From Phycisphaerae bacterium (lineage in GTDB: Bacteria; Planctomycetota; Phycisphaerae; WQYP01): a stretch of DNA of 42,186 nucleotides. The DNA is taken from contig JBIJDM010000002.1 in assembly GCA_044344145.1 (NCBI GenBank), forward strand, positions 1-42,186. Reading direction: 5' to 3'. The translations under genes and the position numbers were made by a program. The notes below the pieces were generated by a model. It ran no database searches, was not told where the DNA came from, and worked only from the letters and a program-made list of their open reading frames with translations. Positions 9,088 through 31,280 of the stretch are shown here, in pieces (position 1 is the first letter of the stretch; every line of letters starts with the position of its first letter).

Positions 9088-9354
9088 ACGTTGGGACCTT
9101 TGGCTCCGGAGGTAACAATCCGAAACCGATCCGAATCAATTTAGCACACGACATCCGCGAAGCGTTATTTCCGGATAAGAACTGTCCGGCACGCTCCGAA
9201 TTCCAACTCGATCTCAGCACGCACTCAGCACGTAATCCGTGCGATATGTTAATTTCACGACTTCGTTGTCGTGTATCCTAAAGCGGCGCATTTTTTCCTG
9301 CAACTACAATGCGCGGGAAAATGTTCAAACCCGCGTTAATTTTCCGGTCCCGGC

Positions 9355-11157: not shown

Positions 11158-11212
11158 GACACGTCTCCATCAACAGCAGGCACAAAGCCTGTCGTTCATT
11201 GCCTGATCATTC

Positions 11213-12520: not shown

Positions 12521-12558
12521 AGCTGCTCCATGCCCTACCGGGCAGCAGGCCTAAATCA

Positions 12559-14532: not shown

Positions 14533-14689
14533 AAAACCTCCACAGGACCGGCATTTACGCTGTCACTGTTAAGAATGGTCAGGAACCGCCGGATCTGATC
14601 TTTTTCGCAGGTCTTGTTGCCGCACAACTCGGGCAGATTTGACAGCCCGCCGCTGGCGGCACGACCAACGGTTCCGATTCAATGCACGC

Positions 14690-14719
14690 TAATAAAACCG
14701 CCAAACGCGAAAACGTCAA
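14690..14719 (-). promoter_or_regulatory. Candidate sigma70-type promoter for the pilus operon
   Basis: On the minus strand: TTGACG (14719-14714), an 18-nt spacer, then TTATTA (14695-14690), about 155 nt upstream of the pilM ATG. This is a sequence match only. Confidence 0.25.
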
Positions 14720-14778
14720 GCGCGGGAGCCGAATCTAGTCCGATATTTTAGCTTTTTTCTGCTGGTCACGGCAGAATA

Positions 14779-15441
14779 TTATTTTACTGCCGTGGGCTTG
14801 ACAGGTGGCCCCAAGGCCGTTTCGAGCGCGGTAACGACCACCGCGTCATCGGGCTTGGTCCGTGAGCCAAACCGGGCCATCAGTTGTCCCTGCCGGTCCA
14901 CCAGAAATTTGGCAAAATTCCACTCGATATCCCCGGCCATGGCGCCGGCGGTGGCCTTTTCGGTAAGAAATTTGTAGACCGGGTGCATTTCTTTACCCTT
15001 GACGGTGATTTTTTCCATCAGTGGAAAGGTCACATCGTAATTGAGGGTGCAAAATTGCCGGATTTCCGCAGGGGTACCGGGTTCCTGGCCGAGAAAATCG
15101 TTGGCCGGGAAGCCAATAATCACCAAACCCCGGTCCTTGTACTTGAGATACAGGGCTTCCAATTGTTTGTATTGCGGGGTCAGCCCGCACTTGCTGGCGA
15201 CATTGACGATTAGCACCACCTGCCCCTTGTGCTGCTTGAGTTCGGAGGGTTTACCCTCCAAATCCCGGACGGTGAAATCCAGCACACTGGGGGCCATCTG
15301 GGTGGTTGCCGGACCGGTAGTTGGAGCGGTGGATGGGGCTTGCACCACGTTACGTCCCGCCGCATAGATTTTGGCCGCAATTAACCCTGCCAAAATTGCC
15401 CCCAGACCCAACCCGCCGTATATAACCCAATGCCGGAGCAT
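14779..15441 (-). CDS. gpx: Glutathione peroxidase family (Cys-type), N-terminally membrane-anchored or secreted
   Basis: The three GPx signature blocks are present: VNVASKCGLTPQY, GFPANDFLGQEPG and WNFAKFLVDRQG. The N-terminus is hydrophobic (WVIYGGLGLGAILAGLIAAKIY). Confidence 0.9.
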   Translation of the reverse strand: MLRHWVIYGGLGLGAILAGLIAAKIYAAGRNVVQAPSTAPTTGPATTQMAPSVLDFTVRDLEGKPSELKQHKGQVVLIVNVASKCGLTPQYKQLEALYLKYKDRGLVIIGFPANDFLGQEPGTPAEIRQFCTLNYDVTFPLMEKITVKGKEMHPVYKFLTEKATAGAMAGDIEWNFAKFLVDRQGQLMARFGSRTKPDDAVVVTALETALGPPVKPTAVK

Positions 15442-15442
15442 A

Positions 15443-15474
15443 GCTAATCCTTTCGAAAGAATTAGCCCATTATA
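15443..15474 (-). promoter_or_regulatory. 24-nt near-perfect palindrome abutting the gpx start codon, preceded by a TATAAT hexamer
   Basis: On the minus strand: TATAAT (15474-15469), gg, then GCTAATTCTTTCGAAAGGATTAGC (15466-15443), t, ATG. In the palindrome 11 of 12 positions pair, and it contains the only SD-like sequence (AAGGA). It could be an operator, an RBS-sequestering hairpin, or the 3' hairpin of the upstream operon. Confidence 0.35.
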
Positions 15475-15491
15475 GGCCGTGCGCCGAGCGG

Positions 15492-16745
15492 TTATGTAGT
15501 CAAACCCGTCAAGTGCAGTAATTGGGTAGCCACCGCCGCGGGCGCGTGCCGGGTGGCCAAGAGGGGGCGTTGGATATGCGGTGGTGCGGCCAGACTGGTT
15601 GCGATGGCCCGGGCGAGGTCGGTGGCATTACCACTGGCGAATAATTGCCCCCCATACGACTGCACCCATTCCGGCATAGCGCCCGTGTCCGGAGCCACCA
15701 CCCCCACGCCACAACTCATGGCCTCCAAGGTGGCCAAGCCCCGACATTCCGGGATTCGGCTGGGCACACAAAACACCCGGCTGTGCTGCATGAGTTTGAT
15801 CTTTTCCGACCCGCTGAGTACCCCGTGGTACACCCACGGCCAGCGCTGCTGATCGAGCTTTTTTTGCACTTCCCGCATGTAGGTTTCGTGGCCGATGCGC
15901 CCGGCGATATGCAGGGTGATTTCCGTGCCCTGATCGGCCAAAATGCTGCAGGCATCCACCAGCAAATCGAGCCCTTTGGCGGGTGTAATCGTCGAAAGAT
16001 AGCCAATGGTATTTCCCGCCGGAGCGCTCACCGGGGGTCTGAATTTGTGGGTCGGCACGGGTGGGTATAGGACCTGTATCTGCTCCGGGGGCAGTTGCAG
16101 CCGGGACTGCATCGTTTCGCGGTGCCAGTGGGAACTGGCGAGTGTGCCCGTCACCTGTTTTACGCGAGTGCGTAATAAATCCCACGCCTGCTGACGCCAG
16201 GGGTCACCCAAGGCGTCCAGAAAATGTTCCTCTCCCTGAAGTCCACAGTAAATCGGCACCCCCGGCCAGTCGGGGAGGCTATCCAGCAGCCCCAACAACA
16301 TGCTGTTGCTGATACTCACCAGCCGGGGCACGGGCAGCGTTTTGAGGAATTTGCCGAGGCGCGCGAATTCTTTGGTTTGAAATCCGGCGCGGCCTTGCAG
16401 CATGGAAACCGTCATGGCCCCCAACGAGCGCGGATCGGTGGCGCTGGACCGGCGGGATAACAACCGCAGCAAGAACGAGGCATCCAAACCGCGGGTCAGC
16501 CAGGCCGGCAGGTGGCGGAACAGAGCGCTGGATTGACTCAGATAGACATTCAGCCCGCCCATATACAATGGGGCCAGATTTTCCGGTAACGTGCCGTCGG
16601 TGACCAGCGGGGTATACAACGGAATCAAACAGACATCATAGCCATGCACCTGCAGGGCCTGGGCCAGATATACATCGCGCTGACAGGCGCCGCAATGCGA
16701 TCCACCCGCCCCAGCGGTGAACATGAGTATCAACTCACGAGTCAT
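15492..16745 (-). CDS. GT4/GT-B-type glycosyltransferase-like protein, last gene of the redox operon
   Basis: The C-terminal GT-B motif is VFCVPSRIPECRGLATLEAMSCGVGVVAPDTGAMPEWV (EX7E-like). The start is set at MTRELIL (16745), which overlaps the upstream stop by 11 nt. The track's 20-aa extension lies inside the upstream gene. Confidence 0.75.
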   Translation of the reverse strand: MTRELILMFTAGAGGSHCGACQRDVYLAQALQVHGYDVCLIPLYTPLVTDGTLPENLAPLYMGGLNVYLSQSSALFRHLPAWLTRGLDASFLLRLLSRRSSATDPRSLGAMTVSMLQGRAGFQTKEFARLGKFLKTLPVPRLVSISNSMLLGLLDSLPDWPGVPIYCGLQGEEHFLDALGDPWRQQAWDLLRTRVKQVTGTLASSHWHRETMQSRLQLPPEQIQVLYPPVPTHKFRPPVSAPAGNTIGYLSTITPAKGLDLLVDACSILADQGTEITLHIAGRIGHETYMREVQKKLDQQRWPWVYHGVLSGSEKIKLMQHSRVFCVPSRIPECRGLATLEAMSCGVGVVAPDTGAMPEWVQSYGGQLFASGNATDLARAIATSLAAPPHIQRPLLATRHAPAAVATQLLHLTGLTT

Positions 16746-18273
16746 CCATACCTCCACGCCGCACAATCGCCCCGGTGGGACACACCTCGGCACAGCGGCT
16801 GGCACTATGCGTCAGGGCTTGGGCCCAACTGACCCCCAGCGGAGTCGCTAGATGAAAGGTAAGCCCCCGCCCCGCCAACGTCAAGCCCACGGGCTCGCGG
16901 GCCTGTTTGGTAACTTCCACGCACAAGCCGCAGCCGATACATTTGCTTATATCAATATCCACTTCCGGATGGCTGGTGATCAGGGGTGGGGGAATCTGGG
17001 TGGGGTTGTGGGTGGACCAGCGGGCACCATATTCTTCGGCATAATTCCGCAACCGGCAGGAATCCGCCACCGCGCAACCGCATTGCAGGCAGCGTTGGGC
17101 TTCCAGACTCATGGCCTCGGGGGTGTGGGTGGTGGTGGCCGGGGTCTGGGGGATAACGGTGATATGCGGATGGGGGCGATGAACTGAGAAACGCATAGGC
17201 TTCATGGTCGCTACTGGGTTCACGTGGGCCAGAAAATCGGCGTGAATCTGCTGGGCGGCTTTGCGGCCTTCGGCGAGACCTTTGACGGCCAGTCGCGTGG
17301 GGATGACCATCGCACCAGCGGCGTAAAGCCCGGTGGTCCCCAGCCGGTACGACTGGGTTAGTACCCCCTGCCCGCGCCAGGGCCAGCCATGGGCTTCGGC
17401 CAGCGCGGGAGTCATGGGGCCCAAGGCCAGCAGGACGGCATCGTATTGCCCGCGCAGATCGGCGGTGGTCAATTCGGGCCCGAAGGAGCAACCCAGGCGG
17501 AGTGTTATCCCCATACGGAGCAATACATCCAATTCGGCATCGAGCAGTTCTGGTGGCAGTTCGGCCGGGGGGACATGGGTCCGCAAGGCTCCACCCAGTT
17601 GGGTGGCTTTGTCTATGAGTGTGACGCGGTAGCCGCGCTGCAGGAGTTCGAAGGCAGCGGCCAGACCGGTGGGGCCGGTGCCGACGATGGCAACGGATTT
17701 GCCGGTGTCAGGGGCGCAGGTGGGCGGGCTGATGGGCCCGGAGGCCAGTTCCTGGGCGACCAGGCCGCGCTTCAAAGCGCACACGGCCAGTCCGCCGTCG
17801 TGGGCGCTGCGGTGACAACCTTTGGCACACGGCTCGGGACAAATATGACCTAGCACGCCCGGCAGGGCGATGGTCTGCCGTACCACGGCCAGGGCCTGGG
17901 CAAAGTCGCCCGCGCGGACCCAGCGGGCCACGCTGGGGACATCCATGTGGGCTGGGCAGGCTTGCGTGCAGGGGGCCACACAATCGCCGTAATGCTCGGA
18001 GAGCAGGAGTTCCAGACTCGCCCGGCGCGCGGCGAAGATAGCGTCGCTCTGGGTGGTGATGACCATGCCGTCCGACACCGGATGGCCGCAGGCGGGGATG
18101 AGATGATCCTGTCCGGCGACCTGTACCACGCAGACCATGCAGCAAACCTGGGGCGGGAGTGTGGGCTCGTAGCAGAGCGTGGGAATCGCGATGCCCAGCC
18201 GGGCGGCGGCGGTCACGATGGTGGTCGGTTCGGCAAGGGTGAGAGGTTGGCCATCAATGGTGATATGAATCAT
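16735..18273 (-). CDS. Fe-S flavoprotein: NuoG/HydA-type N-terminal [2Fe-2S] domain, GltD-like FeS/FAD domain, and NuoG-type [4Fe-4S] domains
   Basis: MIHITIDGQ...LCYEPTLPPQVCCMVCVV...PAC is a plant-type 2Fe-2S site as in NuoG. EHYGDCVAPCTQACPAH...ICPEPCAKGC matches the GltD N-terminal FeS region. VAIVGTGPTGLAAAFELLQRGYRVTLIDK...GG is a dinucleotide fold, and LYAAGAM follows. C-terminal FeS motifs are CLQCGC...C and CIGCGLCVEV...RCAEVCPTGAI. The ATG overlaps the upstream stop in an ATGA arrangement. Confidence 0.8.
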   Translation of the reverse strand: MIHITIDGQPLTLAEPTTIVTAAARLGIAIPTLCYEPTLPPQVCCMVCVVQVAGQDHLIPACGHPVSDGMVITTQSDAIFAARRASLELLLSEHYGDCVAPCTQACPAHMDVPSVARWVRAGDFAQALAVVRQTIALPGVLGHICPEPCAKGCHRSAHDGGLAVCALKRGLVAQELASGPISPPTCAPDTGKSVAIVGTGPTGLAAAFELLQRGYRVTLIDKATQLGGALRTHVPPAELPPELLDAELDVLLRMGITLRLGCSFGPELTTADLRGQYDAVLLALGPMTPALAEAHGWPWRGQGVLTQSYRLGTTGLYAAGAMVIPTRLAVKGLAEGRKAAQQIHADFLAHVNPVATMKPMRFSVHRPHPHITVIPQTPATTTHTPEAMSLEAQRCLQCGCAVADSCRLRNYAEEYGARWSTHNPTQIPPPLITSHPEVDIDISKCIGCGLCVEVTKQAREPVGLTLAGRGLTFHLATPLGVSWAQALTHSASRCAEVCPTGAIVRRGGMDDS

Positions 18274-20597
18274 CGGCGCACCGCCGTACTGCCGGACATG
18301 ATGGCAATCGCGTGTTCGGGACAACCGGTCCGGCACAAGTCACACTGGGTGCACAGGTCGAGATTAATTTTGGCTTTTTGGTACGGGAGCAAAGGAATGG
18401 CCTGCACCGGGCAGACCTGTGCGCACTTGCTGCAGCCGATACAGTCGGCGGTGACTTCGTAGTTGATCAGGGCTTTGCATACCCCCGCCGGGCATTGGCC
18501 GTTTTGGTGGGCGGTCCATTCGTCGGGGAAATAGCGCAAGGCGGATAACACCAGCCGCGGTGCATTGCGGCCCAAACCGCACATGCTGGCCTGCTGCATG
18601 TGCTGGCAGATTTGTTGTAGTTGGGCCACGTCGCCGGGCTTGGCGTTACCAGCCACGAAGCCTTCCAGCAGGGAGACCATACGGCGGGTGCCATAACGAC
18701 ACGGGATGCATTTACCGCAGGATTCCGCCGCGCTGAACCGGGCGAAATAGAGGCACAGGTCCAGCATGCAATCGGACTGATCCAGCGCGATGATTCCCCC
18801 GGAGCCCATGATACCGCCCAGCGTTTGCAGGGCTTCGAAGTCCACGGGGACGTGGCAATGTTCCGCCGGGATACAGGCTCCGGAAGGCCCGCCAAGTAGC
18901 ACGCCTTTGAGTTTACCCCCGGCGGCCATACCCCCACCCAGATCGTGAATCAGATCGTACAGGGAGATTCCCATGGGGACTTCCACCAAGCCGGGATGGC
19001 GTAATTTTCCCGCCAGACAGAACACCTTGGTGCCAGGGCTCGCAGCCGTGCCGGTGGCGCGAAATGCGCTTGCCCCGGTGGCGATCAAACTGGGAACCAA
19101 CGCGAGGGTTTCCACGTTATTGACGAGGGTGGGCTGACCATGCCAGCCGGATTGTGCGGGATAGGGAGGCCGGAGGCGCGGCACACCGCGCTGGCCTTCC
19201 AGCGAAGCGATGAGTGCGGTCTCTTCGCCGCAGATGTAAGCGCCCGCGCCGCGCTGCACCCGACAGGGAACGGCGAGCAATTGTTGGGCGTGCATCAGGG
19301 CCAGTGCGGCTTCGATCCGCGCGACGGCCATGGGATATTCCGCGCGAATATAAAAAATAATCGCCGACGCCCCCACCGCGTGCGCGGCAATCTGGGCGCC
19401 TTCCAGCACGCGAAACGGGAAGGACTCGAGCAACATGCGGTCCATGAAGGCACCGGGATCGCCTTCATCGCCATTGACGATGACGACCTTGTCGCCGGGG
19501 GCGGCGGCGACCAAGTCCCACTTGCGGCCACTGGGATAACCGGCCCCGCCGCGGCCGCGCAGACCGGCGGCGGTTACCTCGGTCCGGATCTGTGCGGGGG
19601 TCATGGTTTGCGCTTTGGACCAACCCTGCCACCCCCCGGCCTTGAGGTAACCGGCCCAATCGAGCGGATCATGGGTCCCGGCGGCGGCCATGGCATGGCG
19701 TTGTTGCTTGGCCAGAATCGTGGTCACCGGGCCCGCATGACTGATTTCGGCGGGGGCTGGGGTGTGCGTGCCGGTCAACCAGCGCTGCCCGAGTTGGGCG
19801 GCTTGCGTAAGTACTTTGCGCCAAGGTTGCAGCCGGCCCCGGGCCGCGGCCACGATGCCGGGGATCTGCTCGGGCCGGACCGAACCGAATAATTGTCGCT
19901 GGTCCCCCACCACCACTTCCACCATTGGCGCCGATTGGCACAGACCATTACACGCCACGGTTTGAATACTGATATTGCGCACGCCGCGCAGGGCCTGTTG
20001 CAAAGCTGCGTACAGCGCATCGGTGCCTTTGGCCACACAGCAGGAGTCTAAACAGACGCGCACCTGAACGGGGGCATCCATCGCCAGCATGGGTTTGAGG
20101 TCAATTGCAGCGACGGGTTCCGTCACGGTTTTCAGCAGCGCGGGCAGCGTGCTGGCTGTCTGCGTGCCATAAATCCGCGCGTCGGTTTGAATCACCGGGG
20201 CCATGCTGCAACAGCCCACGCAGGCTACGCCCTCGATGGTAAATTGCCCGGACGCATCAGTATCCGCATCGGGGTCCATATGCAGCAGGCGGCGCAGTTC
20301 CTGCTCCAGACGGCCACTGCCCTGCACATGACAGGCCGTGCCATGACACACACGCAGGATATGCTTGCCGGCGGGACGGCGCCGCCATTGACTGTAGAAC
20401 GAGGCCACACCTTCGATCTGGGCCAAGGGGAAACCACCGACCGCAGCCAGTTCGTGCAGGACTTCATTGGGCAGATAACCCCAATGTTCATGCACGGCCT
20501 GCAGGAGGGGCAAGAGGGCCTCGGGGGCGCGACCCGTTTGGGCAACGCGTTCCTGTAGCCAAGTGGTGATGGTGGGTGCGGTGAGGTCGGGCGTCAT
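18270..20597 (-). CDS. NuoE-NuoF fusion protein with HydB-type architecture (NADH-binding FMN/Fe-S flavoprotein)
   Basis: NuoE 2Fe-2S site: CHGTACHV...CVGCC. Thioredoxin-like 2Fe-2S site: VCLDSCC...CNGLC. NuoF motifs: GLRGRGGAGYPSGRKW, NGDEGDPGAF, YICGEETALIASLEG and ESCGKCIPCRYG...MCGLG. Two C-terminal ferredoxin motifs: CIGCSKCAQVCP and CTQCDLCRTGCP. The start is set at MTPDLTAP (20597), with an ATGA overlap to the upstream stop. The track's 123-aa Arg-rich extension lies inside the upstream gene. Confidence 0.85.
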   Translation of the reverse strand: MTPDLTAPTITTWLQERVAQTGRAPEALLPLLQAVHEHWGYLPNEVLHELAAVGGFPLAQIEGVASFYSQWRRRPAGKHILRVCHGTACHVQGSGRLEQELRRLLHMDPDADTDASGQFTIEGVACVGCCSMAPVIQTDARIYGTQTASTLPALLKTVTEPVAAIDLKPMLAMDAPVQVRVCLDSCCVAKGTDALYAALQQALRGVRNISIQTVACNGLCQSAPMVEVVVGDQRQLFGSVRPEQIPGIVAAARGRLQPWRKVLTQAAQLGQRWLTGTHTPAPAEISHAGPVTTILAKQQRHAMAAAGTHDPLDWAGYLKAGGWQGWSKAQTMTPAQIRTEVTAAGLRGRGGAGYPSGRKWDLVAAAPGDKVVIVNGDEGDPGAFMDRMLLESFPFRVLEGAQIAAHAVGASAIIFYIRAEYPMAVARIEAALALMHAQQLLAVPCRVQRGAGAYICGEETALIASLEGQRGVPRLRPPYPAQSGWHGQPTLVNNVETLALVPSLIATGASAFRATGTAASPGTKVFCLAGKLRHPGLVEVPMGISLYDLIHDLGGGMAAGGKLKGVLLGGPSGACIPAEHCHVPVDFEALQTLGGIMGSGGIIALDQSDCMLDLCLYFARFSAAESCGKCIPCRYGTRRMVSLLEGFVAGNAKPGDVAQLQQICQHMQQASMCGLGRNAPRLVLSALRYFPDEWTAHQNGQCPAGVCKALINYEVTADCIGCSKCAQVCPVQAIPLLPYQKAKINLDLCTQCDLCRTGCPEHAIAIMSGSTAVRR

Positions 20598-23500
20598 GGG
20601 GCCGCCTCCGGGGCGGCTTGCCCTTCCTTGAGGCACCAGAGATGCTTGTCGCCCCGCACATACATCCGCCCCGCCACCAGCGCGGGACCGGCGCGGACAG
20701 GTTCGCCCAGCCGCCAGGTGCCCACTTCGCGGAACGTGTCGGCCATGGCGAAGATATGCACCTCGCCGGCATCGGTGAACCAGTAGACCTGCTTGCCTGC
20801 CAGCACCGGATTGCTGTAGGAATGCTGACCGAAGTCGTGCGTCCAGAGGACTTTGCCATCGGCCAATTGGTAACAGGTGATTTTGCCTTCGGAGGCGAAG
20901 GTTAAGAGCAATTTGCCATCGGTCAACGGGCTGACGGTATCGGGCAGGGACGAATCGCTGCGCCATAATTCTTTGGGCGGTTGGCCGGACGTGGCGGTGG
21001 CGAGATCGAATACCGCTGTGATGGCATTGGCGTTGCTGACGGCCAGATAATTACCCGCTTGTACCGGGGTGGTGGAGACATCGTTGCTCAAAACTTCCAA
21101 GCGCCACAATTCACGCCCGGTCGCCGGGGCGTAGGCAATCACATTGGGGTTCGCACAAGTCAGCAGCGCGGGCGTGCCATCGGCTTGAGTAATCAGGCGC
21201 GGGGTGCTCCACGATCCGCCCATGGTACGGGGCACGCGCCACAATTGCCGGCCCGTCAGCGGGTCCAACGCCAGCAACGCGGACGAAGTGGCGGCATCCT
21301 GATCGTATTGAATAATCAAACGTTCCCCGGCCAACAGCAAACTACTCGCGTAGCCGTAAGCATTATCCACTACCCCCAGCCGTTTTTGCCAGACCTTTTC
21401 ACCGCTGACGCGCACACACACAACTTCACCAGTCGCCCACGTGGCCCAGACATAACGCCCGTCCGTCACCGCGGTGCTGGCGGCGCGAATGGTGGGCTCC
21501 AACACTTTCGGCGGTGGCGTCAGGCCCGGCCAGCTATGCGTCCAGCGCAGATTTCCGGTATCGGCGGCAAAGCACCAGAGGACGTTGGTTTGTTCGTCGG
21601 CGCCGGTCAGGAAGACATCATTACCCCAAACCACGGGGGAACTATCACCACCGAGGGGTAATTCCGCCTGCCAGCGGACTCCGTGACCAACAGGGGCATC
21701 GAATTTGCCCGGCCAGCAGCCGGGGGCGGCCACGCCGTTCATGTCGGGGCCGCGGAATTGGGGCCATTGCTGAGTCCAGATTCTAGCGTCAGGCGGAACG
21801 TATTGGGCGGGTGCGGTGGTGGCCACCGCGACATCGGTTCGCATTACAGGTTGATAAACCACCAGCAAGACCAGCCCCATGCTGACCAACCCACCACCCG
21901 CGCCAATGCCCCAGTAGGTTTGGCGCAGCCATTGGGGCCGTTCGTCGCGGCGTGGCAGACGCAGGTCGGGCAGATCACGCTGGCCACGGCGACCCAGCTT
22001 CCACAATATCACCGTCAGGGTCACCCCGAGTAACAGGGCGCCGCCCGCATTGGTGAAGAAGGTCACCCGCCATTCATATTCCTGACGCAGTTGTACATCG
22101 AGGGTGCGGATTTCCGCACGCAAGGTTTCGGGGTTGGGTGCGGTCAGGAGTTGGGTTTGCAGGTTCGCAATTTGCTCGGTTAGGAGCGGACTTTTCAGAC
22201 CACCGCGCAGATACACCCCCAGCATGAGCAGTGCGAGGATCACGGTGAGTGTCAGGGTGACCATGGCGCTGCGTTGCCAGGCCAAGTGCCGGGGCGGGAG
22301 CGCCACCGGGGCGGACGGGGTACCCAGTAATACCACTTGCGCACCGGGTTCCACGGTCTGGGGGCAATAGTCATAGCACCGGCCACAGGCGAGGCAATCC
22401 GCACTGCTGGCCAGATAATCCGCCTGGGGCTGACCACGCTGATATCGCCACCACCACGCCAGCAGAATCAGCGCCAGGGCCGCGCCTAGAACGGCGGTGG
22501 CGCTTTGCATACGGGTTTGAATCTGCCGGGCGGCGGTGAGTAACAGACCACGGTCTTCACCCAGCGCGGCAAAGGCTGCCATTGCGGTGCCGGGTTTGGG
22601 TAATGCGCCCGGAGTTTGTGCCTCCACCTGCGCGGCCAGTTGCACGGTGGGATGCCACTGGGCGAGTGTCAGTCCACCCCGCCAGCCCAGACCGGCCCAT
22701 ACGAGTACCGCAATCATTCCGCCCAGCAGCCACCAGACCCGCCGGGAGGAGCCGGTGGGGTTCAGCGCTTTTTCTGCGGGTAATTTAATCGCCCCAAATG
22801 GACAACTTTTTTCACACAACCGGCATTGGATACAGGTGGTCGGGGTCACGGTCACCGGCTTGCGGGCCAATGGCCCCAGCGCGCTCAACAGCGCCCCATA
22901 CGGACACAGCCACCGGCAATAGGGCCGACCCACCCACATACTCAGCAGTACAAAGCCCCCCGCCACCAGCAGCATTCCTACCCCCGCGTAACGGCGGAAG
23001 ACCACAACAAAGGGATCGTATTCACAAATCAGCCAGCGCGTGCCGGTGTAGGCGAGAATAAACGCCAAGCCCAAATACACCCACGGCAACAAGCGCAAAA
23101 CCCGGTCCACAGCCACCGGGACGTTCAGCGGTTTGAGCAGGACCAAATCCTGCAAAGCGCCCAGTGGACACACGCCAGCGCAAAACACGCGGCCATAAAA
23201 AAGTGTCCACACCAACGGCAAAGCCACATACACCCCCACCGCCCACGGCAGGGAATATTCCGCCGACCCCAGCGCCAGGGCCACATTCTGCAGACCCCCA
23301 ATGGCACAGACGCAGCCGCCACGATAAAAACCGAAGTACAACACCGAAGCCAGACTCAGCCACGCCAAGCCGGTGCGCTGCCGCCGGGCATGCACCAGCC
23401 AGGTCGCCACCACCATAAACGCCACCAGCATGGCCACATCCAGCACCACCATGCCCGACCAACTTAGCCGCGCCCCGGCGGGTAAATCCGTGGCCGGGAT

Positions 23501-23599
23501 GGTATAGCCGGTGGAAAACTCCGGCGGGGGAAAGCGCGCCTCCGCCCAGAGCGGGAGCGCCGTGGCGAACAAGACGAGGATGGTCAGGAGCTTGCGCAT
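20594..23599 (-). CDS. Fusion protein: NapH/CcoG-like CX3CP membrane polyferredoxin (~10 TM) plus a C-terminal PQQ-like beta-propeller
   Basis: Signal-like N-terminus MRKLLTILVLFATALPLWA. Two CX3CP motifs lie at membrane edges (FCAGVCPLGALQD and YCRWLCPYGALLS). The ferredoxin motifs are CIQCRLCEKSCP and CLACGRCYDYCP. Further TM segments run to about residue 600. From WPQFRGPDMNG (~21766) a propeller follows with repeated tGxxlW strands (TGNLRWTH, TGRQLWRV, TGRELWRL, DGKVLWTH). The start overlaps the upstream stop by 1 nt. Confidence 0.8.
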   Translation of the reverse strand: MRKLLTILVLFATALPLWAEARFPPPEFSTGYTIPATDLPAGARLSWSGMVVLDVAMLVAFMVVATWLVHARRQRTGLAWLSLASVLYFGFYRGGCVCAIGGLQNVALALGSAEYSLPWAVGVYVALPLVWTLFYGRVFCAGVCPLGALQDLVLLKPLNVPVAVDRVLRLLPWVYLGLAFILAYTGTRWLICEYDPFVVVFRRYAGVGMLLVAGGFVLLSMWVGRPYCRWLCPYGALLSALGPLARKPVTVTPTTCIQCRLCEKSCPFGAIKLPAEKALNPTGSSRRVWWLLGGMIAVLVWAGLGWRGGLTLAQWHPTVQLAAQVEAQTPGALPKPGTAMAAFAALGEDRGLLLTAARQIQTRMQSATAVLGAALALILLAWWWRYQRGQPQADYLASSADCLACGRCYDYCPQTVEPGAQVVLLGTPSAPVALPPRHLAWQRSAMVTLTLTVILALLMLGVYLRGGLKSPLLTEQIANLQTQLLTAPNPETLRAEIRTLDVQLRQEYEWRVTFFTNAGGALLLGVTLTVILWKLGRRGQRDLPDLRLPRRDERPQWLRQTYWGIGAGGGLVSMGLVLLVVYQPVMRTDVAVATTAPAQYVPPDARIWTQQWPQFRGPDMNGVAAPGCWPGKFDAPVGHGVRWQAELPLGGDSSPVVWGNDVFLTGADEQTNVLWCFAADTGNLRWTHSWPGLTPPPKVLEPTIRAASTAVTDGRYVWATWATGEVVCVRVSGEKVWQKRLGVVDNAYGYASSLLLAGERLIIQYDQDAATSSALLALDPLTGRQLWRVPRTMGGSWSTPRLITQADGTPALLTCANPNVIAYAPATGRELWRLEVLSNDVSTTPVQAGNYLAVSNANAITAVFDLATATSGQPPKELWRSDSSLPDTVSPLTDGKLLLTFASEGKITCYQLADGKVLWTHDFGQHSYSNPVLAGKQVYWFTDAGEVHIFAMADTFREVGTWRLGEPVRAGPALVAGRMYVRGDKHLWCLKEGQAAPEAAP

Positions 23600-24174
23600 C
23601 AGTCGCCGCGGGCTCCGGTGAGTTGGTTATAGGCTTTATCCGCATCTTTGCGGCTGATGGCCCCGGCGGGGCATTGTGCGGCGATGGCACATTGGTTGCA
23701 CTGCTGACATTCCGCATGACTGATCTGCAGGTACAACGAGCCATTGCCGTAATCCTGACAGCCTTGGACACAGCGGCCGCAGCCGATGCAGCGGTCCCAG
23801 TCAATGGTGTAAGCGTAATACGGGTCTTCGACGCTCTTGCGCACAATCGCATTCACCGGGCACAATTGATTTTCCGCGCCGGTGTTGAATTGCTCGGGCT
23901 TGGGGGTGAAATAACCGGAACAAATATTGCAATAACCACAGGCGGAATAGGCGTGCACACACTTCACCGCGGAGGGGGTTTTGACACAGGCCGAGGCGCA
24001 GCGGCCACAGCGGATGCAGCGGCGCGGATCGATCTGCCAGACTTGGGCGCCTTGCAGGCGCGCGGTACGCGTGGCCAGATAGCCGGCCCCGCCGGCGATG
24101 GTCACCAGCGCGGCGCCGCGCAGAATCCAGTGCATAAATTCGCGGCGTGAGGTGGGCGTGGGTTCGTCTGCCAT
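23599..24174 (-). CDS. Tat-signal periplasmic polyferredoxin, NapG-like (about four [4Fe-4S] motifs)
   Basis: The start is set at MADEPTPTSRREFMHWILRGAALVTIAGGAG, a twin-arginine SRREFM motif plus an h-region. Cys clusters: CIRCGRCASAC, CGYCNIC...CPVNAI, CIGCGRCVQGC and CQQCNQCAIAAQCP. The ATG lies 1 nt after the upstream stop. Confidence 0.8.
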   Translation of the reverse strand: MADEPTPTSRREFMHWILRGAALVTIAGGAGYLATRTARLQGAQVWQIDPRRCIRCGRCASACVKTPSAVKCVHAYSACGYCNICSGYFTPKPEQFNTGAENQLCPVNAIVRKSVEDPYYAYTIDWDRCIGCGRCVQGCQDYGNGSLYLQISHAECQQCNQCAIAAQCPAGAISRKDADKAYNQLTGARGD

Positions 24175-24175
24175 G

Positions 24176-24889
24176 TTACACCTTTCGTCCAAAAACTTTG
24201 ACCACGCCGTGATCCAGGGCATACACCCGCCCCTGGGCATCCACGGCCAACGCTTCTGGTCCAACGCGGGGATCGGTAAAATCTTCCGGTCCGGCGACAA
24301 CTTCCAGTAATTCCCCCGTCATACTGTAAATTTTGATCATCGCGATGATCTTCTGGGCCACGACGATGTGCCCTTCGGGGGTGAAATCCAGCAATACGGG
24401 GTTGCAGCAGCCGGGGAATTGCTCGGTGGCGATGCCGGGCTGGCCCCAGCGCCGGAGCAATTTGCCGTCCGCACTGTACGCCTGTAATTCATGCTGGCCG
24501 GGATTGGTCAGCCAGATTTCGCCGGCTTTGCTGACCCGCACCTGCGCTGGGGCGCGATACACCACCAGCCCCTCGGCCTTGGTAGTCACATCCGGTCCGC
24601 CGAGATGATTGAGAATCTGCCCGTTGGCATCGCGCTGGATAAAACAGCGTCCCGGCGCGTCATACGTGAAGGTATCGGTACTGATCGCCTGAGTCGCGGA
24701 TACTAGCGCCGTGGTGGCGGGTAATTTCTCCAGCAGGACAAACGTACGCCATTTCGGGTCAATGCGGGTATCGGGAATCTGTTTGGGGGTAGGCTCGGTA
24801 TTCTGGGCGTTCTGTTTCAGCAGCACGCCGGTGCCCACCGCCACGACGGCCACGCCCGCGAGGATATACAGCTTTTTGTTATTTTCCAT
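24176..24889 (-). CDS. Membrane-anchored periplasmic NHL-repeat-like protein
   Basis: The start is set at MENNKKLYILAGVAVVAVGTGVLL, an N-terminal anchor. NHL-like units include RWGQPGIATEQFPGCCNPVLLDFTPEGHIVVA...IKIYS and PEALAVDAQGRVYALDHGVVKVF. The ATG lies 1 nt after the upstream stop. Confidence 0.65.
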   Translation of the reverse strand: MENNKKLYILAGVAVVAVGTGVLLKQNAQNTEPTPKQIPDTRIDPKWRTFVLLEKLPATTALVSATQAISTDTFTYDAPGRCFIQRDANGQILNHLGGPDVTTKAEGLVVYRAPAQVRVSKAGEIWLTNPGQHELQAYSADGKLLRRWGQPGIATEQFPGCCNPVLLDFTPEGHIVVAQKIIAMIKIYSMTGELLEVVAGPEDFTDPRVGPEALAVDAQGRVYALDHGVVKVFGRKV

Positions 24890-24890
24890 C

Positions 24891-26318
24891 TCACGGCCCC
24901 TCCGGTAAATCGTAACAGACCATCTCATCAAGATCGCGCACGATCAGGCCCCGGCCACTCACGGCCATGGGAGCCCAGCTTTCATGCCCCTGGAGCAAAC
25001 GCGCCTGGGCCCGCACAGTAAAGCCATCCGGCCGTGCAGCCATGACGGTCAAACGGCCACGATCGTCCAAGGCCCAGAGGCTGTCACCGGCCAGAAAATA
25101 GGGCCCCAGGCCAAAGCGTACCGCGCCGCTGCTCCACTTGCGTGTGGCCGTCAGGGGGTCCAGACAGACCATCTCTCCGCCGGGCACCACGCCGTAGACG
25201 TGTCCATCGTGAGTGATGGGGGTATGTTGCTCGGCGCCGAATTCATTGGCCTTGAAAGTATGCACCCGCTGCACCTGCCAGTGGTCTTCGACCAGCGCGA
25301 GTTTGATGACCTGTGCCCCCGCGCCGTAACCGCCGGCGAGTAGCAGATGATCTTCACCTACCACCACGGGCGAGGCCACGACGGCCTGAGGAATCCGCCA
25401 ACCGGGATAGGTCCATAATAACGTACCGTCGTTACTGATTCCCGCCACGCCGCCGGTGTAACAGGCCACGTACATGCGTTGGCCCGCGAGGGTCAGGGGC
25501 GTCAGACTGGCATGGGTCTGTTCCCATCCAGCCAATTCCGCCGGGGCATCCAACTGCCAGAGCACCTTGCCGGTTGAAGGGTCCAAGGCCAGCATGAGCA
25601 CCTTGCCCCCGACGGCGACGAGTAATTTGCCATCATCCGCCAGCAAGCATTGACCCGCATACCACTCTGGCACGCGCGCCTGATATTGGGCGCATAAATC
25701 CAAGCCCCACAAATAAGCCCCAGACTTTATATCCACCGCCATCAGATGTAATTTCGGCCCCAGCGTGATGACCACATCCCCCACCACCATCGGCACGGTG
25801 CGCGATACGCCGTGATTGCTTTTGGTCTTGAGCGTGTAACCCCGCCGCCAGAGTTCCTGGCCATCGTGGATATTCCAGCAGCGCAGGACATCCCCGCCGG
25901 TGTTCTGCCACTTGGGATCGTAATCCAGCAGCATGACGCGTCCCTGCGCCACCACCGGCCCGGCATAGCCCGGCCCGAGCATGGGCACCCGCCAGCGGAC
26001 CTGAGGACCGGCGCTGGGCCAATGGTAGGACAGTGCTTCGGAGTGTACCCCATCGCGTAATGGCCCCCTGAAGCCGGGCCAGAGCGGTGTGACGGCGGGG
26101 TCCGCGCTGGCAAAGGTCTGTAAGGTGCCGGTGATATCCAGCGGCTTTTTTCCCGCCCCATCGGCAACACCTCCATCCAAGCCCGGCACCCGCAGAGCGG
26201 GCGCAGGTCGGGAAGATTGCCATACCAGTGCCACCATGGCCAAAGCACAAGCCAAACCGACCACCAGTGGTATCCCGTACGGCGCGAAGCGTAATTGGCG
26301 CGTGGGCATCCGTAACAT
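24891..26318 (-). CDS. Membrane-anchored PQQ-like (BamB-family-like) beta-propeller protein, first gene of the redox operon
   Basis: N-terminal anchor IPLVVGLACALAMVALVW. LWPGFRGPLRDG is followed by repeated propeller strands (DGQELWRR, SGAYLWGL, TGKVLWQL, DGTLLWTY). There is no SD, which is consistent with a near-leaderless start. Confidence 0.8.
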   Translation of the reverse strand: MLRMPTRQLRFAPYGIPLVVGLACALAMVALVWQSSRPAPALRVPGLDGGVADGAGKKPLDITGTLQTFASADPAVTPLWPGFRGPLRDGVHSEALSYHWPSAGPQVRWRVPMLGPGYAGPVVAQGRVMLLDYDPKWQNTGGDVLRCWNIHDGQELWRRGYTLKTKSNHGVSRTVPMVVGDVVITLGPKLHLMAVDIKSGAYLWGLDLCAQYQARVPEWYAGQCLLADDGKLLVAVGGKVLMLALDPSTGKVLWQLDAPAELAGWEQTHASLTPLTLAGQRMYVACYTGGVAGISNDGTLLWTYPGWRIPQAVVASPVVVGEDHLLLAGGYGAGAQVIKLALVEDHWQVQRVHTFKANEFGAEQHTPITHDGHVYGVVPGGEMVCLDPLTATRKWSSGAVRFGLGPYFLAGDSLWALDDRGRLTVMAARPDGFTVRAQARLLQGHESWAPMAVSGRGLIVRDLDEMVCYDLPEGP

Positions 26319-26326
26319 AATACCGG

Positions 26327-26355
26327 ATTTTAATGTCTTATTTTGTTATTTCCAA
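26327..26355 (-). promoter_or_regulatory. Candidate sigma70-type promoter of the leftward redox operon (near-leaderless)
   Basis: On the minus strand: TTGGAA (26355-26350), a 17-nt spacer, then TAAAAT (26332-26327). Only 8 nt separate the -10 hexamer from the ATG at 26318, and there is no SD. Confidence 0.35.
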
Positions 26356-26370
26356 GTTTTTAGGTATCAT
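26343..26370 (+). promoter_or_regulatory. Candidate sigma70-type promoter of the rightward propeller/ABC operon
   Basis: TTGTTA (26343-26348), a 16-nt spacer, then TATCAT (26365-26370). Its -35 element is back-to-back with the -35 of the leftward promoter. The region is AT-rich in an otherwise GC-rich genome. Confidence 0.3.
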
Positions 26371-26398
26371 CAGGCTACATTTTATGAAAGGTTTAACC

Positions 26399-27622
26399 AT
26401 GCGACGGATGGGATTGGCCGTATTAACTACACTCGCGGTGGTCTCTTTGGCCCCGGTTTACGCCGCTTGGCCGCGCTATTTGGGCCCGCAAGGCAATGGT
26501 TTTGCCGATGATGTGGGGATCAACAAAGACTGGAACAACAAAGCGCCCAAGAAGCTGTGGACCATGCCGTTATCGGATAATGGCTATGGCGGGCCGATCG
26601 TGGCCGATAAAAAAGTATTCATCATGGACCACACCGGCGGCGGTGGCGGTCAGGATGTCATCCGGGCATTGGATTTGGAAACCGGGAAACAGGCATGGGA
26701 ATTCGCCTTTGTCTCCAAGGGCAGCAAAGACAATTATGGTTTTACCCGTCCGAGTCCCTGTTATGCCGGGGGGATGCTGTACATCTCCGGCAAAATGGGT
26801 GAGATTGCCTGTCTGGATGCCAATACCGGCAAGGGGGTGTGGGAAAAACATTTGGTGAAAGACTTCGGCGGCAATCCCCCCAAGTGGGAATTTTCCGCCT
26901 CCCCGGTCGTGGATGAAGACCGTCTGCTCATTCAGCCCGGGGGCAAGACTTCGCTGGTCGTGCTGAACCGTAAAGATGGCAAGACGATCTGGCAGGGACC
27001 GGCATCCAATGGTTCGGCGGGTTATGCCGCCCCGGTCAAAGCCAAAATCGGCGGCGTGGAGCAGTACGTCATCATGACGGATGCCGAATGTTGGGGTCTG
27101 GATTACAAGACCGGGGCCAAGCTCTGGAGTTTTGAGTGGAAAACCAATTTCGGCGTCAACGCCTGTGTGCCGATTGTGATCGGCGATCAGGTATTGGTCT
27201 CCAGCGGTTACAACATGGGCACCGGGTTATACCAGATCACCGATAACAAAGCCACGCAGGTGTGGTTCACCAACGAGGCAAAATCGCGTTTCAGCACGCC
27301 GATCTACCATAATGGCTTTGTTTACAGCACCGGCGATCAGAAAACCCTTGCGTGTTTGGATATCAAGAACGGCAAGCCTGTATGGACGGTCAAGGGTTTT
27401 GAGTGGGGTGGTCTGCTGGCGGCCGATGGCACTTTGATTGTGATGGATGCCAAGACCGGCGCGCTGGTGCAATATGCCCTGGACGGCACGGCGGCCAAGG
27501 AACTAGGCCGGATGGAAAAACCGGTTGGCGGCAAGAATAACTTCTGGACCGCTCCGGTACTCAGCGAAGGTCGGCTGGTCCTGCGCAGCCCGGTGGAACT
27601 GGCCGTCTACGATTTGAAATAA
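26399..27622 (+). CDS. Secreted PQQ-like beta-propeller protein
   Basis: Signal peptide MRRMGLAVLTTLAVVSLAPVYA|A, then WPRYLGPQGNG, then repeated strands TGKQAWEF, TGKGVWEK, DGKTIWQG, TGAKLWSF and NGKPVWTV. The start at 26399 is chosen because AAAGG lies 7 nt upstream. ATGs at 26384 and 26333 are alternatives. Confidence 0.8.
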   Translation: MRRMGLAVLTTLAVVSLAPVYAAWPRYLGPQGNGFADDVGINKDWNNKAPKKLWTMPLSDNGYGGPIVADKKVFIMDHTGGGGGQDVIRALDLETGKQAWEFAFVSKGSKDNYGFTRPSPCYAGGMLYISGKMGEIACLDANTGKGVWEKHLVKDFGGNPPKWEFSASPVVDEDRLLIQPGGKTSLVVLNRKDGKTIWQGPASNGSAGYAAPVKAKIGGVEQYVIMTDAECWGLDYKTGAKLWSFEWKTNFGVNACVPIVIGDQVLVSSGYNMGTGLYQITDNKATQVWFTNEAKSRFSTPIYHNGFVYSTGDQKTLACLDIKNGKPVWTVKGFEWGGLLAADGTLIVMDAKTGALVQYALDGTAAKELGRMEKPVGGKNNFWTAPVLSEGRLVLRSPVELAVYDLK

Positions 27623-27638
27623 GTCCGCAAGGAACCCC

Positions 27639-28304
27639 ATGCTAACCTTGCACGCGGTCAGTAAGAGTTACCCCACGCCGCAAGGCGCACTGGCGGTATT
27701 GGATGGGCTGGACGCAGTATGGGGACCCGGCACGTATGCACTGATGGGCGCATCGGGTTCGGGCAAGAGCACGCTGCTGAATCTGATTGCGGGACTGGAC
27801 ACCCCCACCGCCGGGGAGATTCGGTTTGAGGGGACGGCATTAGCCAGCTACACCGCAGCCCAAATGGATGCCTATCGGGCGCGGACCATCGGACTGTTGT
27901 TTCAAGAGCATCATTTACTGGGTCATCTCACGGCGCTGGATAATGTGCTGCTGGCCACGCTGGCGGTGGATGCCCCACAACCCCGCGCGGTGGCGCTGGA
28001 ATTATTGGCGGAGCTGGGGATTGATCGACGCATGGCCTTTGCCTATCCGCACCAACTCTCCGGCGGGCAGTGCCAGCGCGTCGCGCTGGCTCGGGCCCTG
28101 ATCAATCAGCCACGCATGTTACTGTGCGATGAACCCACCGGCAGTCTGGACGCGGCCACCGCCCGGCAAGTCGCCGCGACGATTACACAAATCGCCCAGC
28201 GCCGCGGCCTGATCGTATTGGTCGTCACGCATAATCCCGATCTGGCCGCCCTGATGCAGCAACGGTATCACCTGGCGGATGGCCACCTGACGCGACAGAC
28301 CTAG
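27639..28304 (+). CDS. ABC transporter ATP-binding protein (LolD/MacB/FtsE-like)
   Basis: Walker A GASGSGKST, Q-loop LLFQEH, signature LSGGQCQRVALARAL, Walker B MLLCDEPTGSLD and H-loop VVTHN. Confidence 0.95.
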   Translation: MLTLHAVSKSYPTPQGALAVLDGLDAVWGPGTYALMGASGSGKSTLLNLIAGLDTPTAGEIRFEGTALASYTAAQMDAYRARTIGLLFQEHHLLGHLTALDNVLLATLAVDAPQPRAVALELLAELGIDRRMAFAYPHQLSGGQCQRVALARALINQPRMLLCDEPTGSLDAATARQVAATITQIAQRRGLIVLVVTHNPDLAALMQQRYHLADGHLTRQT

Positions 28305-28313
28305 GAGTATGCG

Positions 28314-31277: not shown

Positions 31278-31280
31278 ACC

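Follow-up and report, generated by a model that had tools for sequence, protein, structure and literature searches.

The 42,186-nt stretch of DNA analyzed here (Phycisphaerae bacterium, assembly GCA_044344145.1, contig JBIJDM010000002.1; "the window" denotes this whole stretch) carries an 11-gene system in which a cytoplasmic NADH module, a NapH-type membrane polyferredoxin, a twin-arginine (Tat)-signal ferredoxin and periplasmic propeller proteins are encoded alongside an ABC transporter and a glycosyltransferase. The redox genes lie at 15492-26318 and the full system at 15492-32339. On the evidence of gene order, the cluster is conserved across at least 10 bacterial phyla, and natural gene fusions appear to tie its parts into one assembly. 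We tentatively favor a reading, to which we give slightly less than an even chance, in which NADH would drive the export of electrons through the cytoplasmic module (g5 and g6), the membrane protein (g4) and the ferredoxin (g3) to a propA–NHL station acting on an envelope substrate, possibly a lipid.

Organization of the Gene Cluster

Domain calls were made by Pfam and NCBIfam searches, and membrane topology was predicted from hydropathy and the positive-inside rule. The features of the system, with g4 given both whole and by its parts (TM, transmembrane; CDS, coding sequence), are as follows:

24891-26318, minus: propA (g1), N-terminal TM anchor, then an 8-bladed PQQ_2/BamB-like propeller
24176-24889, minus: NHL (g2), N-terminal TM anchor, then an NHL propeller with F-x-G-C-C-N-P (C161-C162)
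23599-24174, minus: Fd (g3), Tat-signal ferredoxin with 16 Cys (4 x [4Fe-4S]) and a 17th conserved Cys
20594-23599, minus: g4, whole CDS, with Fer4_5 (NapH-type), Fer4 and PQQ_2 domains (Pfam)
22310-23599, minus: g4 residues 1-430, NapH-family membrane polyferredoxin core, with signal peptide, TMs, 2 x CX3CP and 2 x CxxCxxCxxxCP
21800-22309, minus: g4 residues 431-600, linker from core to propeller, with three more TM helices plus a coiled loop on the periplasmic side (hydropathy)
20594-21799, minus: g4 residues 601-1001, periplasmic PQQ_2 propeller (propD; PQQ_2 E = 2e-23)
18270-20597, minus: g5, NuoE-like domain fused to a HydB/StnB/NfnB-type subunit (Pfam and PDB sequence matches)
16735-18273, minus: g6, trimmed NfnA/StnC-like subunit (Pfam and PDB sequence matches)
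15492-16745, minus: g7, GT4 glycosyltransferase (Glycos_transf_1 E = 5e-21)
26319-26398, no strand: divergent intergenic region, 80 bp, AT-rich, with promoter-like hexamers on both strands
26399-27622, plus: propB, secreted PQQ_2 propeller (PQQ_2 E = 1e-33)
27639-28304, plus: ABC ATPase of the MacB/LolD/FtsE/YbbA/DevA (type VII) group (ABC_tran match)
28314-31277, plus: duplicated FtsX-type permease, 987 aa (FtsX Pfam match)
31281-32339, plus: propC, small secreted PQQ_2 propeller (PQQ_2 E = 5e-37)

Open reading frame (ORF) translation gave spacings from g1 to g7 of +1, +1, -1, -4, -4 and -11 nt, reproducing exactly the seven minus-strand CDSs and six junction values of a preliminary description made from the sequence alone; Pfam and NCBIfam likewise agree with its domain assignments for all seven genes. 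That description took the seven genes as a single coupled unit. The tight coupling stands, but the unit is larger: the four divergent genes encoding propB, the ABC ATPase, the FtsX permease and propC, spaced by 16, 9 and 3 nt, are part of the same system, making 11 genes in total, and a five-gene terpenoid cassette joins it elsewhere.

Conservation and Gene Fusions

A propA profile scan of 185,579 species-representative genomes returned at least 593 confirmed relatives. Synteny was counted in loci fetched via propA alone, namely the best 80 of these at least 593 relatives. The best 80 loci come from Planctomycetota (Pirellulales, Phycisphaerae, Sedimentisphaerales and Thermoguttaceae) and also from Verrucomicrobiota, Armatimonadota, Kiritimatiellota, Lentisphaerae, Desulfobacterota, Latescibacterota, Omnitrophota, Poribacteria and Aegiribacteria. 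The recurring gene order is propC-GT4-ABC-FtsX-propA-NHL-Fd-NapH-propD-NuoEF-GltD-like-propB, with propC as the first gene of the canonical operon. Where at least 9 kb was available downstream (47 loci), NHL, Fd and NapH were found in 41, propD in 40, NuoEF in 38 and the GltD-like gene in 33. Where at least 7.5 kb was available upstream (43 loci), propC, GT4, ABC and FtsX lay directly upstream in 19-20 and elsewhere in the locus in others.

Contigs carrying g4 homologues have both halves of the system in one co-directional operon, for example GT4-ABC-FtsX-propA-NHL-Fd-NapH/propeller-NuoEF-GltD-like, and a Bacteroidota metagenome-assembled genome (MAG) has the order propB-propA-NHL-(Fd+NapH)-propD-NuoEF-GltD-like-propC-GT4-ABC-FtsX. 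Elsewhere, propB orthologues are likewise part of the cluster and in many cases separate the GltD-like gene from the terpenoid cassette. A 35%-identical orthologous locus shows the -1 and -4 junctions as well (L001; genes 9441-10001, 10001-13063 and 13060-15498). The NHL family alone comprises at least 140 clusters at 50% identity, each scoring above 340 bits.

Several fusions join neighboring parts of the system. Fd is fused to the periplasmic N-terminus of NapH in Bacteroidota (P0014-P0021, L006), NapH to NuoE in P0025-P0033 and L005, and propA to NHL in P0167 (40% identity, E = 4e-70); the window itself contributes NapH+propD and, in g5, NuoE+NuoF. These fusions back the wiring logic proposed in the preliminary description, that of an NADH-type module, a NapH-like membrane protein, a Tat ferredoxin and periplasmic propellers. 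The synteny that it would predict is strongly conserved in dozens of genomes, and the FeS cysteines and twin arginines are ~100% conserved in 55-61 orthologues.

The preliminary description knew of no described system with this composition, and homology searches agree: no curated family in NCBIfam or Pfam claims the set, and no curated NCBIfam model reaches its cut-off for any member. The members seen are named "hypothetical" or "BamB family" by their sources. We found no prior description of the system in the curated libraries and general knowledge consulted, together with a limited literature search. No cultured representative was identified; named members are MAGs, though the records of two loci (L076 and L077) are named Chthonomonas calidirosea and Blastopirellula marina.

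Individual loci vary in further ways. Two tandem NHL paralogues occur in the clusters at L167:8773-11083 and L168:10001-12067 and in L041 and L068. Small genes of a mobile or toxin-antitoxin type are found in some genomes as HEPN and a small partner between propA and NHL (L167:7922-8727), as PDDEXK_3 between NapH-NuoE and NuoF (L005:11769-12185) and as NTP_transf_2 and HEPN after the last cluster gene of the P0003 contig. In two loci in which NapH-propD is followed by no NuoEF, the next genes encode a GDSL-lipase/TPR/FGE-sulfatase fusion protein (L003:12993-15413) and a HEAT/TPR-like protein with an LRR protein (L004:12931-16941).

The Cytoplasmic NADH Module

Residues 1-170 of g5 form a NuoE-like [2Fe-2S] domain, and residues 178-767 align end to end with the PDB chains 9bov_B, 9n5u_B ("NfnB") and 8oh5_B and with HydB chains (E = 1e-155 to 1e-135). 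Because the alignment covers the full length of these chains, g5 comprises a NuoE-like domain and a complete HydB-type subunit. The latter contains a thioredoxin (Trx)-like 2Fe-2S domain, the flavin mononucleotide (FMN)/NADH site, the N3 cluster and a C-terminal 2 x [4Fe-4S] domain (Pfam: 2Fe-2S_thioredx, Complex1_51K, NADH_4Fe-4S and Fer4_21). Complex I NuoF, in contrast, is without the N-terminal Trx-like and C-terminal 2 x [4Fe-4S] domains, and g5 scores below the complex I equivalogs for both NuoF (TIGR01959, 381 bits; cut-off 559) and NuoE (NF005722, 132 bits; cut-off 141). The FMN site reported in the preliminary description was recovered as the loop GLRGRGGAGYPSGRKW at residues 345-360, and g5 also carries GDEGDPG and the N3 motif ESCGKCIPCR.

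The best PDB matches of g6 (Pfam: Fer2_4, Fer4_20, a Rossmann domain and Fer4) are 9bov_A, 9n5u_A ("NfnA") and 8oh5_C. The alignment passes from residue 288 to 307 of the query while the target runs from 289 to 458, and the NADPH-binding domain is therefore deleted; relative to NfnA/StnC, both this domain and the C-terminal formate dehydrogenase (FDH)-like domain are missing from the PDB alignment. The [2Fe-2S] and His/Cys3 clusters, the GltD-type FeS domain, the FAD Rossmann domain and the later clusters are all retained, and 35 orthologues show no variation in the cluster ligands or the FAD GxGxxG. Against the glutamate synthase small subunit model TIGR01317, g6 scores 119.5 bits, below the cut-off of 447.7.

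Judged by these alignments, g5 and g6 together are a HydBC/NfnABC/StnABC ("Bfu")-type module whose third subunit is without the NADPH domain. Of the parts that characterize Bfu enzymes, g5 supplies the NuoE-like subunit and the NuoF-like subunit with Trx-like and 2 x [4Fe-4S] domains, while no catalytic third subunit (hydrogenase, FDH or GltD-type NADPH site) was found in g6. The preliminary description had called this pair a NuoE-NuoF fusion and a NuoG/GltD chimera fed by NAD(P)H. Its domains were right, but the module is specifically of the HydBC/NfnABC/StnABC type without the NADPH and FDH-like domains; since g6 is without an NADPH-binding domain, the donor narrows to NADH at the NuoF-type site, and NADPH drops out.

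The Membrane Polyferredoxin and the Tat Ferredoxin

The core of g4 matches Fer4_5 (E = 4e-12, Pfam). As a polytopic membrane protein with a pair of CX3CP motifs and, toward the C-terminus, a pair of CxxCxxCxxxCP motifs, it bears the hallmark of the NapH/NosR superfamily. These Cys motifs (C140/C144P, C228/C232P, C256-C266P and C402-C412P) are ~100% conserved in 56 sequences. The scores against NapH/MauN TIGR02163 (50.5 bits; cut-off 213) and NapH NF007013 (46.4 bits; cut-off 234) are below both cut-offs, and no solved structure related to the membrane part was found by sequence. The predicted topology comprises a signal peptide and ~10 TMs, with the CX3CP and [4Fe-4S] motifs in K/R-rich cytoplasmic loops, and the positive-inside rule places the propeller and C96, C98 and C192 outside. 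These last cysteines belong to two periplasmic-face motifs, G-C96-x-C98-x-x-G-x-x-Q-N and C192-x-x-D-P-F. GCxCxxGxxQN was present in 30 of 33 system proteins and CxxDPF in all 33; both were found in none of 87 NosR-like relatives. We infer that the extra cysteines would form the periplasmic landing site of a trans-membrane electron path.

The NapH-propeller fusion noted in the preliminary description is present in g4 but is a rare form, with ~10 full-length homologues. Full-length homologues are few because most genomes encode NapH (~440 aa) and propD (~600 aa, "mid+prop") separately; residues 431-600 of g4 correspond there to the N-terminus of propD.

The ferredoxin g3, which matches Fer4 Pfam families, combines the twin-arginine signal and the 16 Cys for 4 x [4Fe-4S] of the NapG-like functional class. 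Among 61 orthologues, R10-R11 and the 16 Cys are 100% conserved and the 17th, C72, 93%. Its score against NapG NF007012 is 20.4 bits, below the cut-off of 269.

The Periplasmic Propellers

The AlphaFold2 (AF2) model of propA (PQQ_2 E = 5e-24, Pfam) has 8 blades and a mean confidence (pLDDT) of 90.5. Among 48 orthologues, H169, R173, Q223, H269, Q364, D132/Y133, W448 and R461 are invariant, and C147, C224, C385 and C468 are at least 90% conserved. DSSP assignment of the AF2 model puts H169, R173, Q223, H269, Q364, W448 and C224 in loops before the inner strands of successive blades, around one mouth of the central channel. Such an arrangement in the model is what would be expected of a binding or active site, here putative, and not of a scaffold.

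A profile of the NHL protein matches TRIM NHL domains (E = 1e-25). Its only conserved cysteines, C161 and C162, are 100% conserved in 61 orthologues. The AF2 model is confident at residues 69-237 only, corresponding to ~4 blades. Indeed, the NHL protein of the window is ~100 N-terminal residues shorter than more than 100 orthologues (320-370 aa) and retains ~4 of 6 blades together with the Cys-Cys pair. A 96%-identical Phycisphaerae MAG protein (P0283) is also 237 aa long, and the short NHL is therefore a lineage variant and not an assembly error; its competence is uncertain.

In each of the three remaining propellers, propB, propC and propD, one Cys but no His is conserved. In propD (54 orthologues), which starts with a WPxFRGP motif, this Cys is C-terminal, and the protein is probably a scaffold.

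Established propeller functions were tried as explanations and rejected. In Foldseek comparisons, the nearest folds of propA were BamB (E ~1e-16, TM-score ~0.74) and tetrathionate hydrolase; with TRIM NHL for the NHL protein, only generic propellers were returned, which gave no clue to chemistry. Scores far under the cut-offs speak against a true BamB or pyrroloquinoline quinone (PQQ) dehydrogenase: the BamB models gave 34 to 38 bits for propA (cut-offs 285 and 423), 74 for propB and 124 for propC (cut-off 285), and the PQQ-dehydrogenase model TIGR03075 gave 24, 45 and 65 bits for the same proteins (cut-off 480). A NosZ-like CuZ propeller was set aside for propA, which has too few conserved His and no cupredoxin. 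A heme conduit was ruled out by the lack of CXXCH in all 11 proteins. This agrees with the preliminary description, which had seen no canonical CXXCH and no molybdopterin, hydrogenase, FDH or cupredoxin motif in the seven genes; no Mo protein, hydrogenase, FDH or cupredoxin was found here either.

The preliminary description had further concluded that the terminal enzyme was missing. No recognized one is present, but it need not be missing: by their conserved residues, propA, with its central-pocket His/Arg/Gln/Cys, and NHL, with its Cys-Cys pair, are candidate terminal components.

The ABC Transporter and the Glycosyltransferase

The best NCBIfam match of the ABC ATPase is LolD (186 bits; cut-off 308), followed by MacB, FtsE, YbbA and DevA. 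Hydropathy indicates two large periplasmic domains of ~430 and ~190 aa in the permease. It matches the FtsX domain (29.9 vs. 25.5 bits) and, weakly, the ADOP duplicated-permease family, shares 25% identity across 982 aa with the permease in the L003 cluster, and has no match among PDB sequences. In L003 and L006, a 380-414 aa protein homologous to propC precedes GT4/ABC.

The g7 product scores 75.4 bits against Glycos_transf_1 (gathering score 26.4), with no specific equivalog in NCBIfam. GT4 lies inside the cluster in Bacteroidota, Planctomycetota and Armatimonadota and shares an operon with the terpenoid cassette in L033 and L007. It is conserved in 24 orthologues, with an invariant G-x3-C-x-x-C-x-R-D (C18 and C21; residues 14-24) in the N-terminal acceptor domain. 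This Cys motif, uncommon among GT4 enzymes, may bind a metal or have a redox role.

A Terpenoid Cassette beside the System

Five genes encoding a 2 x [4Fe-4S] protein (A317), a B12-binding radical S-adenosylmethionine (SAM) enzyme, a prenyl-diphosphate synthase fused to a Cys-rich DUF116 domain, an alpha-alpha toroid (E360) and a squalene-hopene cyclase (SHC)-like class II cyclase are the only other recurrent neighbors of the cluster, adjoining propA in 7 genome loci from three phyla. The cassette occurs at L033:2777-9607 (minus) and also in L007, L034, L048, L050, L071, L079 and L087-L149. In the 7 genome loci it shares operons with the GT4, propB and propC of the system. A reverse search of metagenome contigs with the radical SAM enzyme gave at least 540 relatives, of which the best 80 loci were examined. 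Of these, 66 carry an orthologous cassette, and system genes are adjacent in 21 of 33 cassette loci with usable flanks. Examples of the resulting super-operons are NapH-propD-NuoEF-GltD-like-propB-A317-rSAM-synthase-E360-cyclase and ...cyclase-propC-GT4-ABC-FtsX.

The cassette enzymes look genuine from their motifs, which include an invariant P-D-x-D-D in the cyclase, DDIED in the farnesyl/geranylgeranyl diphosphate (FPP/GGPP)-like synthase and CxxxCxxC in the radical SAM enzyme. None of the cassette proteins reaches the curated cut-off for hopene cyclase or another named family. A role for E360 as a Zn protein-prenyltransferase acting on CC/CxC motifs was rejected because 35 sequences contain no conserved Cys or His. 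The presence of the cassette inside the operon in a subset of genomes suggests, from sequence context, a glycosylated cyclic isoprenoid lipid as one client of the system.

Proposed Electron Flow and Alternative Readings

In the reading that we favor, NADH would be oxidized at the FMN of g5, and the FeS chains of g5 and g6 would pass electrons into the cytoplasmic clusters of g4. Electrons would cross the membrane through Cys-ligated centers at both membrane faces and reach g3, which would hand them to a propA–NHL complex, where a periplasmic or membrane-derived substrate may be reduced by means of the vicinal Cys pair and the pockets conserved in the propellers. In this scheme propD, propB and propC would act as scaffolds, and the MacB-type ABC transporter and GT4 would supply or remove the substrate. 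A broader proposal, less likely than not but with a substantial chance of being right, is that the system represents an envelope redox machine of a new class. In it, an NADH module of the bifurcation type joined to a NapH-type FeS conduit would drive electrons over the inner membrane to cofactor-poor propellers that use a vicinal dithiol; together with a MacB-type extractor and a glycosyltransferase, the machine would make or remodel a cyclic-terpenoid outer-envelope glycolipid in the Planctomycetota–Verrucomicrobiota–Chlamydiota (PVC) group, Armatimonadota, Bacteroidota and related phyla.

Several observations weigh against NADH-driven export to propA–NHL. The direction of electron flow is not fixed by sequence, and electrons would have to cross ~30 Å of membrane within a NapH-type protein. 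The propellers have no recognizable catalytic cofactor site (propA has two invariant His; propB, propC and propD have none), the vicinal Cys pair could be structural or metal-binding and not redox-active, and the NHL protein of the window itself is short by ~2 blades. NuoEF is absent in L003 and L004, g6 is not beside the cluster in several Verrucomicrobiota, and ABC/GT4 are absent nearby in some loci; only the propA-NHL-Fd-NapH-propD core is therefore constant. Finally, neither the window nor the 10 kb past its left end contains the terpenoid cassette, and no cassette follows the cluster in L168, which marks the cassette as a frequent add-on outside the core.

Since sequence does not fix polarity, electrons could instead flow inward, with propA/NHL oxidizing a low-potential periplasmic substrate and Fd and NapH passing electrons to the Bfu-type module, which would reduce NAD+ and possibly also a cytoplasmic ferredoxin. 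The closest solved relatives of g5 and g6 are Bfu-type enzymes that are known as reversible (HydABC and NfnABC), and 8- and 6-bladed propellers include dehydrogenases and hydrolases. We nevertheless consider inward flow unlikely: no dehydrogenase cofactor site was recognized (PQQ-dehydrogenase, 24 bits vs. 480) and no heme, Mo or Cu motif, few periplasmic donors are reducing enough for NAD+, and characterized NapH, NosR and CcoG relatives are generally known to send electrons outward or to acceptors. The parts list also recalls the nos cluster, in that one cluster combines an ABC system with a propeller protein, a NapH-like protein and a Tat ferredoxin. On this basis propA, perhaps with NHL, might be a periplasmic metallo- or cofactor-enzyme whose center is assembled by the ABC system and accessory propellers, in the manner of NosDFY and NosL for NosZ, and kept reduced and active by Fd/NapH/NuoEF, in the manner of NosR or NosGH. 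The conserved His and Cys of propA around its central channel would suit such a center, and Cys-Cys pairs are typical soft-metal ligands, as is generally known for MerT, MerA and ArsD. Yet CuZ needs 7 His and propA has only 2 that are invariant, the cluster has neither a cupredoxin domain nor homologues of NosD, NosY or NosL, the ABC system is of the FtsX/MacB type and not ABC-2, and neither GT4 nor the terpenoid cassette would have a role, all of which makes this arrangement distinctly unlikely.

Bifurcation proper would split the electrons of NADH, a downhill branch leaving via NapH/Fd to a periplasmic or quinone sink and the other reducing a cytoplasmic ferredoxin of very low potential (e.g., A317) for the B12 radical-SAM terpenoid step, so that the periplasmic part would be an exergonic outlet. 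The HydB-specific Trx-like and 2 x [4Fe-4S] domains of g5, which mark bifurcating relatives off from complex I NuoF, point this way, as do the NapH-NuoE fusions that put NapH beside the NuoE cluster and the super-operon order GltD-like, propB, A317 ferredoxin, radical SAM. However, neither the window nor most of the system loci seen have the cassette, whereas it is the periplasmic proteins that vary least in their presence; several Verrucomicrobiota have no g6 beside the cluster, and no high-potential acceptor was identified; we judge this account quite improbable. That the genes are several unrelated small operons without a common function is hardly credible. The window does hold two divergent transcription units, and members are missing from some loci, but the order is kept in at least 10 phyla, four independent kinds of fusion occur, the coupling junctions are conserved, and only the cassette otherwise recurs beside the cluster.

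Comparison with Known Systems

The system works like a NapGH/NosGH/NosR electron-donor module but by score is not a member of those families. With NapGH/NosGH/MauMN it shares an adjacent, translationally coupled pair of a Tat 16-Cys ferredoxin and a membrane protein with two CX3CP and two CxxCxxCxxxCP motifs. The NosZ N-domain and the MauB subunit are propeller proteins in those clusters, as here. The scores, however, are far under the cut-offs (NapH, 50 bits vs. 213; NapG, 20 vs. 269), and g4 differs in its 10 TMs, its split second FeS motif and its three extra periplasmic-face cysteines. The donor here is a docked NADH module rather than, or besides, quinol, and there is no Mo, Cu or tryptophan tryptophylquinone (TTQ) enzyme. 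With the nos cluster, the shared parts are the periplasmic propeller(s), the membrane FeS donor and the ABC system; here the CuZ His ligands, cupredoxin, NosD, NosY and NosL are lacking, the ABC system is of the MacB/FtsX type, and GT4 and terpenoid genes are added.

Among Bfu enzymes (HydABC, NfnABC and StnABC), g5 aligns with NfnB, StnB and HydB, and the N-terminal half and FeS linker of g6 align with NfnA and StnC. The module here differs from them in having no hydrogenase, FDH or NADP site and in being fused or coupled to a membrane protein. With the type VII ABC systems (MacB, LolCDE, FtsEX, YbbAP and DevCA) the transporter shares its ATPase kinship, FtsX domains and large periplasmic domains, but the permease is duplicated (987-1150 aa), scores below all family cut-offs and is set in a redox and propeller cluster. 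From BamB and the PQQ dehydrogenases, whose fold it shares, propA differs by its TM anchor and its own conserved pocket residues.

DsbD, MsrQ/Fre and CcoG export cytoplasmic reducing power to the periplasm, and CcoG is a NapH-family polyferredoxin. Here, in contrast, the carriers are FeS clusters fed by a dedicated NADH module, not thiols or heme b, and the acceptors are propellers. To our knowledge, there is no other case of a HydBC/Nfn-type NADH module feeding a NapH-type membrane protein directly. If the wiring is true, it would be the first such case and would bear on trans-membrane electron transfer by NapH-, NosR- and CcoG-type proteins, as well as on the role of the "BamB-like" and NHL propellers of Planctomycetota and Verrucomicrobiota. 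The link to the cassette points to a novel envelope lipid, which could matter for biomarker geochemistry and for the envelope biology of poorly studied phyla.

Promoter Region, Base Composition and Flanking Genes

In the 80-bp divergent region, a -35/-10-like pair on the minus strand (26355-26327, TTGGAA-17-TAAAAT) and another on the plus strand (26343-26370, TTGTTA-16-TATCAT) show consensus resemblance only, and the total count of hexamer pairs is not above the shuffled expectation. The propB ORF opens at 26333, and its likely start is the ATG at 26399, immediately before the signal peptide. An Rfam search of the window and of 5 loci for riboswitches or other known RNA elements, as a clue to a ligand, gave no hit. 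The minus-strand operon (window 16000-26000) has a GC content of 62-64%, compared with 57-59% in the flanks and 57% over propB (26-28 kb), and numerous long shadow ORFs lie opposite it.

Three flanking genes were considered as members of the system and rejected, with no counterpart in any of 86 loci: a glutathione peroxidase (14779-15441), a methyltransferase (32346-33071) and a 570-aa ORF (33134-34846). The first of these, on the minus strand 50 nt downstream of GT4, encodes a membrane-anchored glutathione-peroxidase-family protein and is not conserved beside the cluster elsewhere. Pfam returned no match for the large ORFs at 33134-34846 (plus, 570 aa), 9355-11157 (minus, 600 aa) and 11213-12520 (minus, 435 aa). 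Type IV pilus or secretion genes occupy 6133-14532 (minus), including a secretin (6133-9087) and a PilM-like gene (12559-14532), between which the 600-aa and 435-aa ORFs sit. The contig of the window also encodes heme A synthase.

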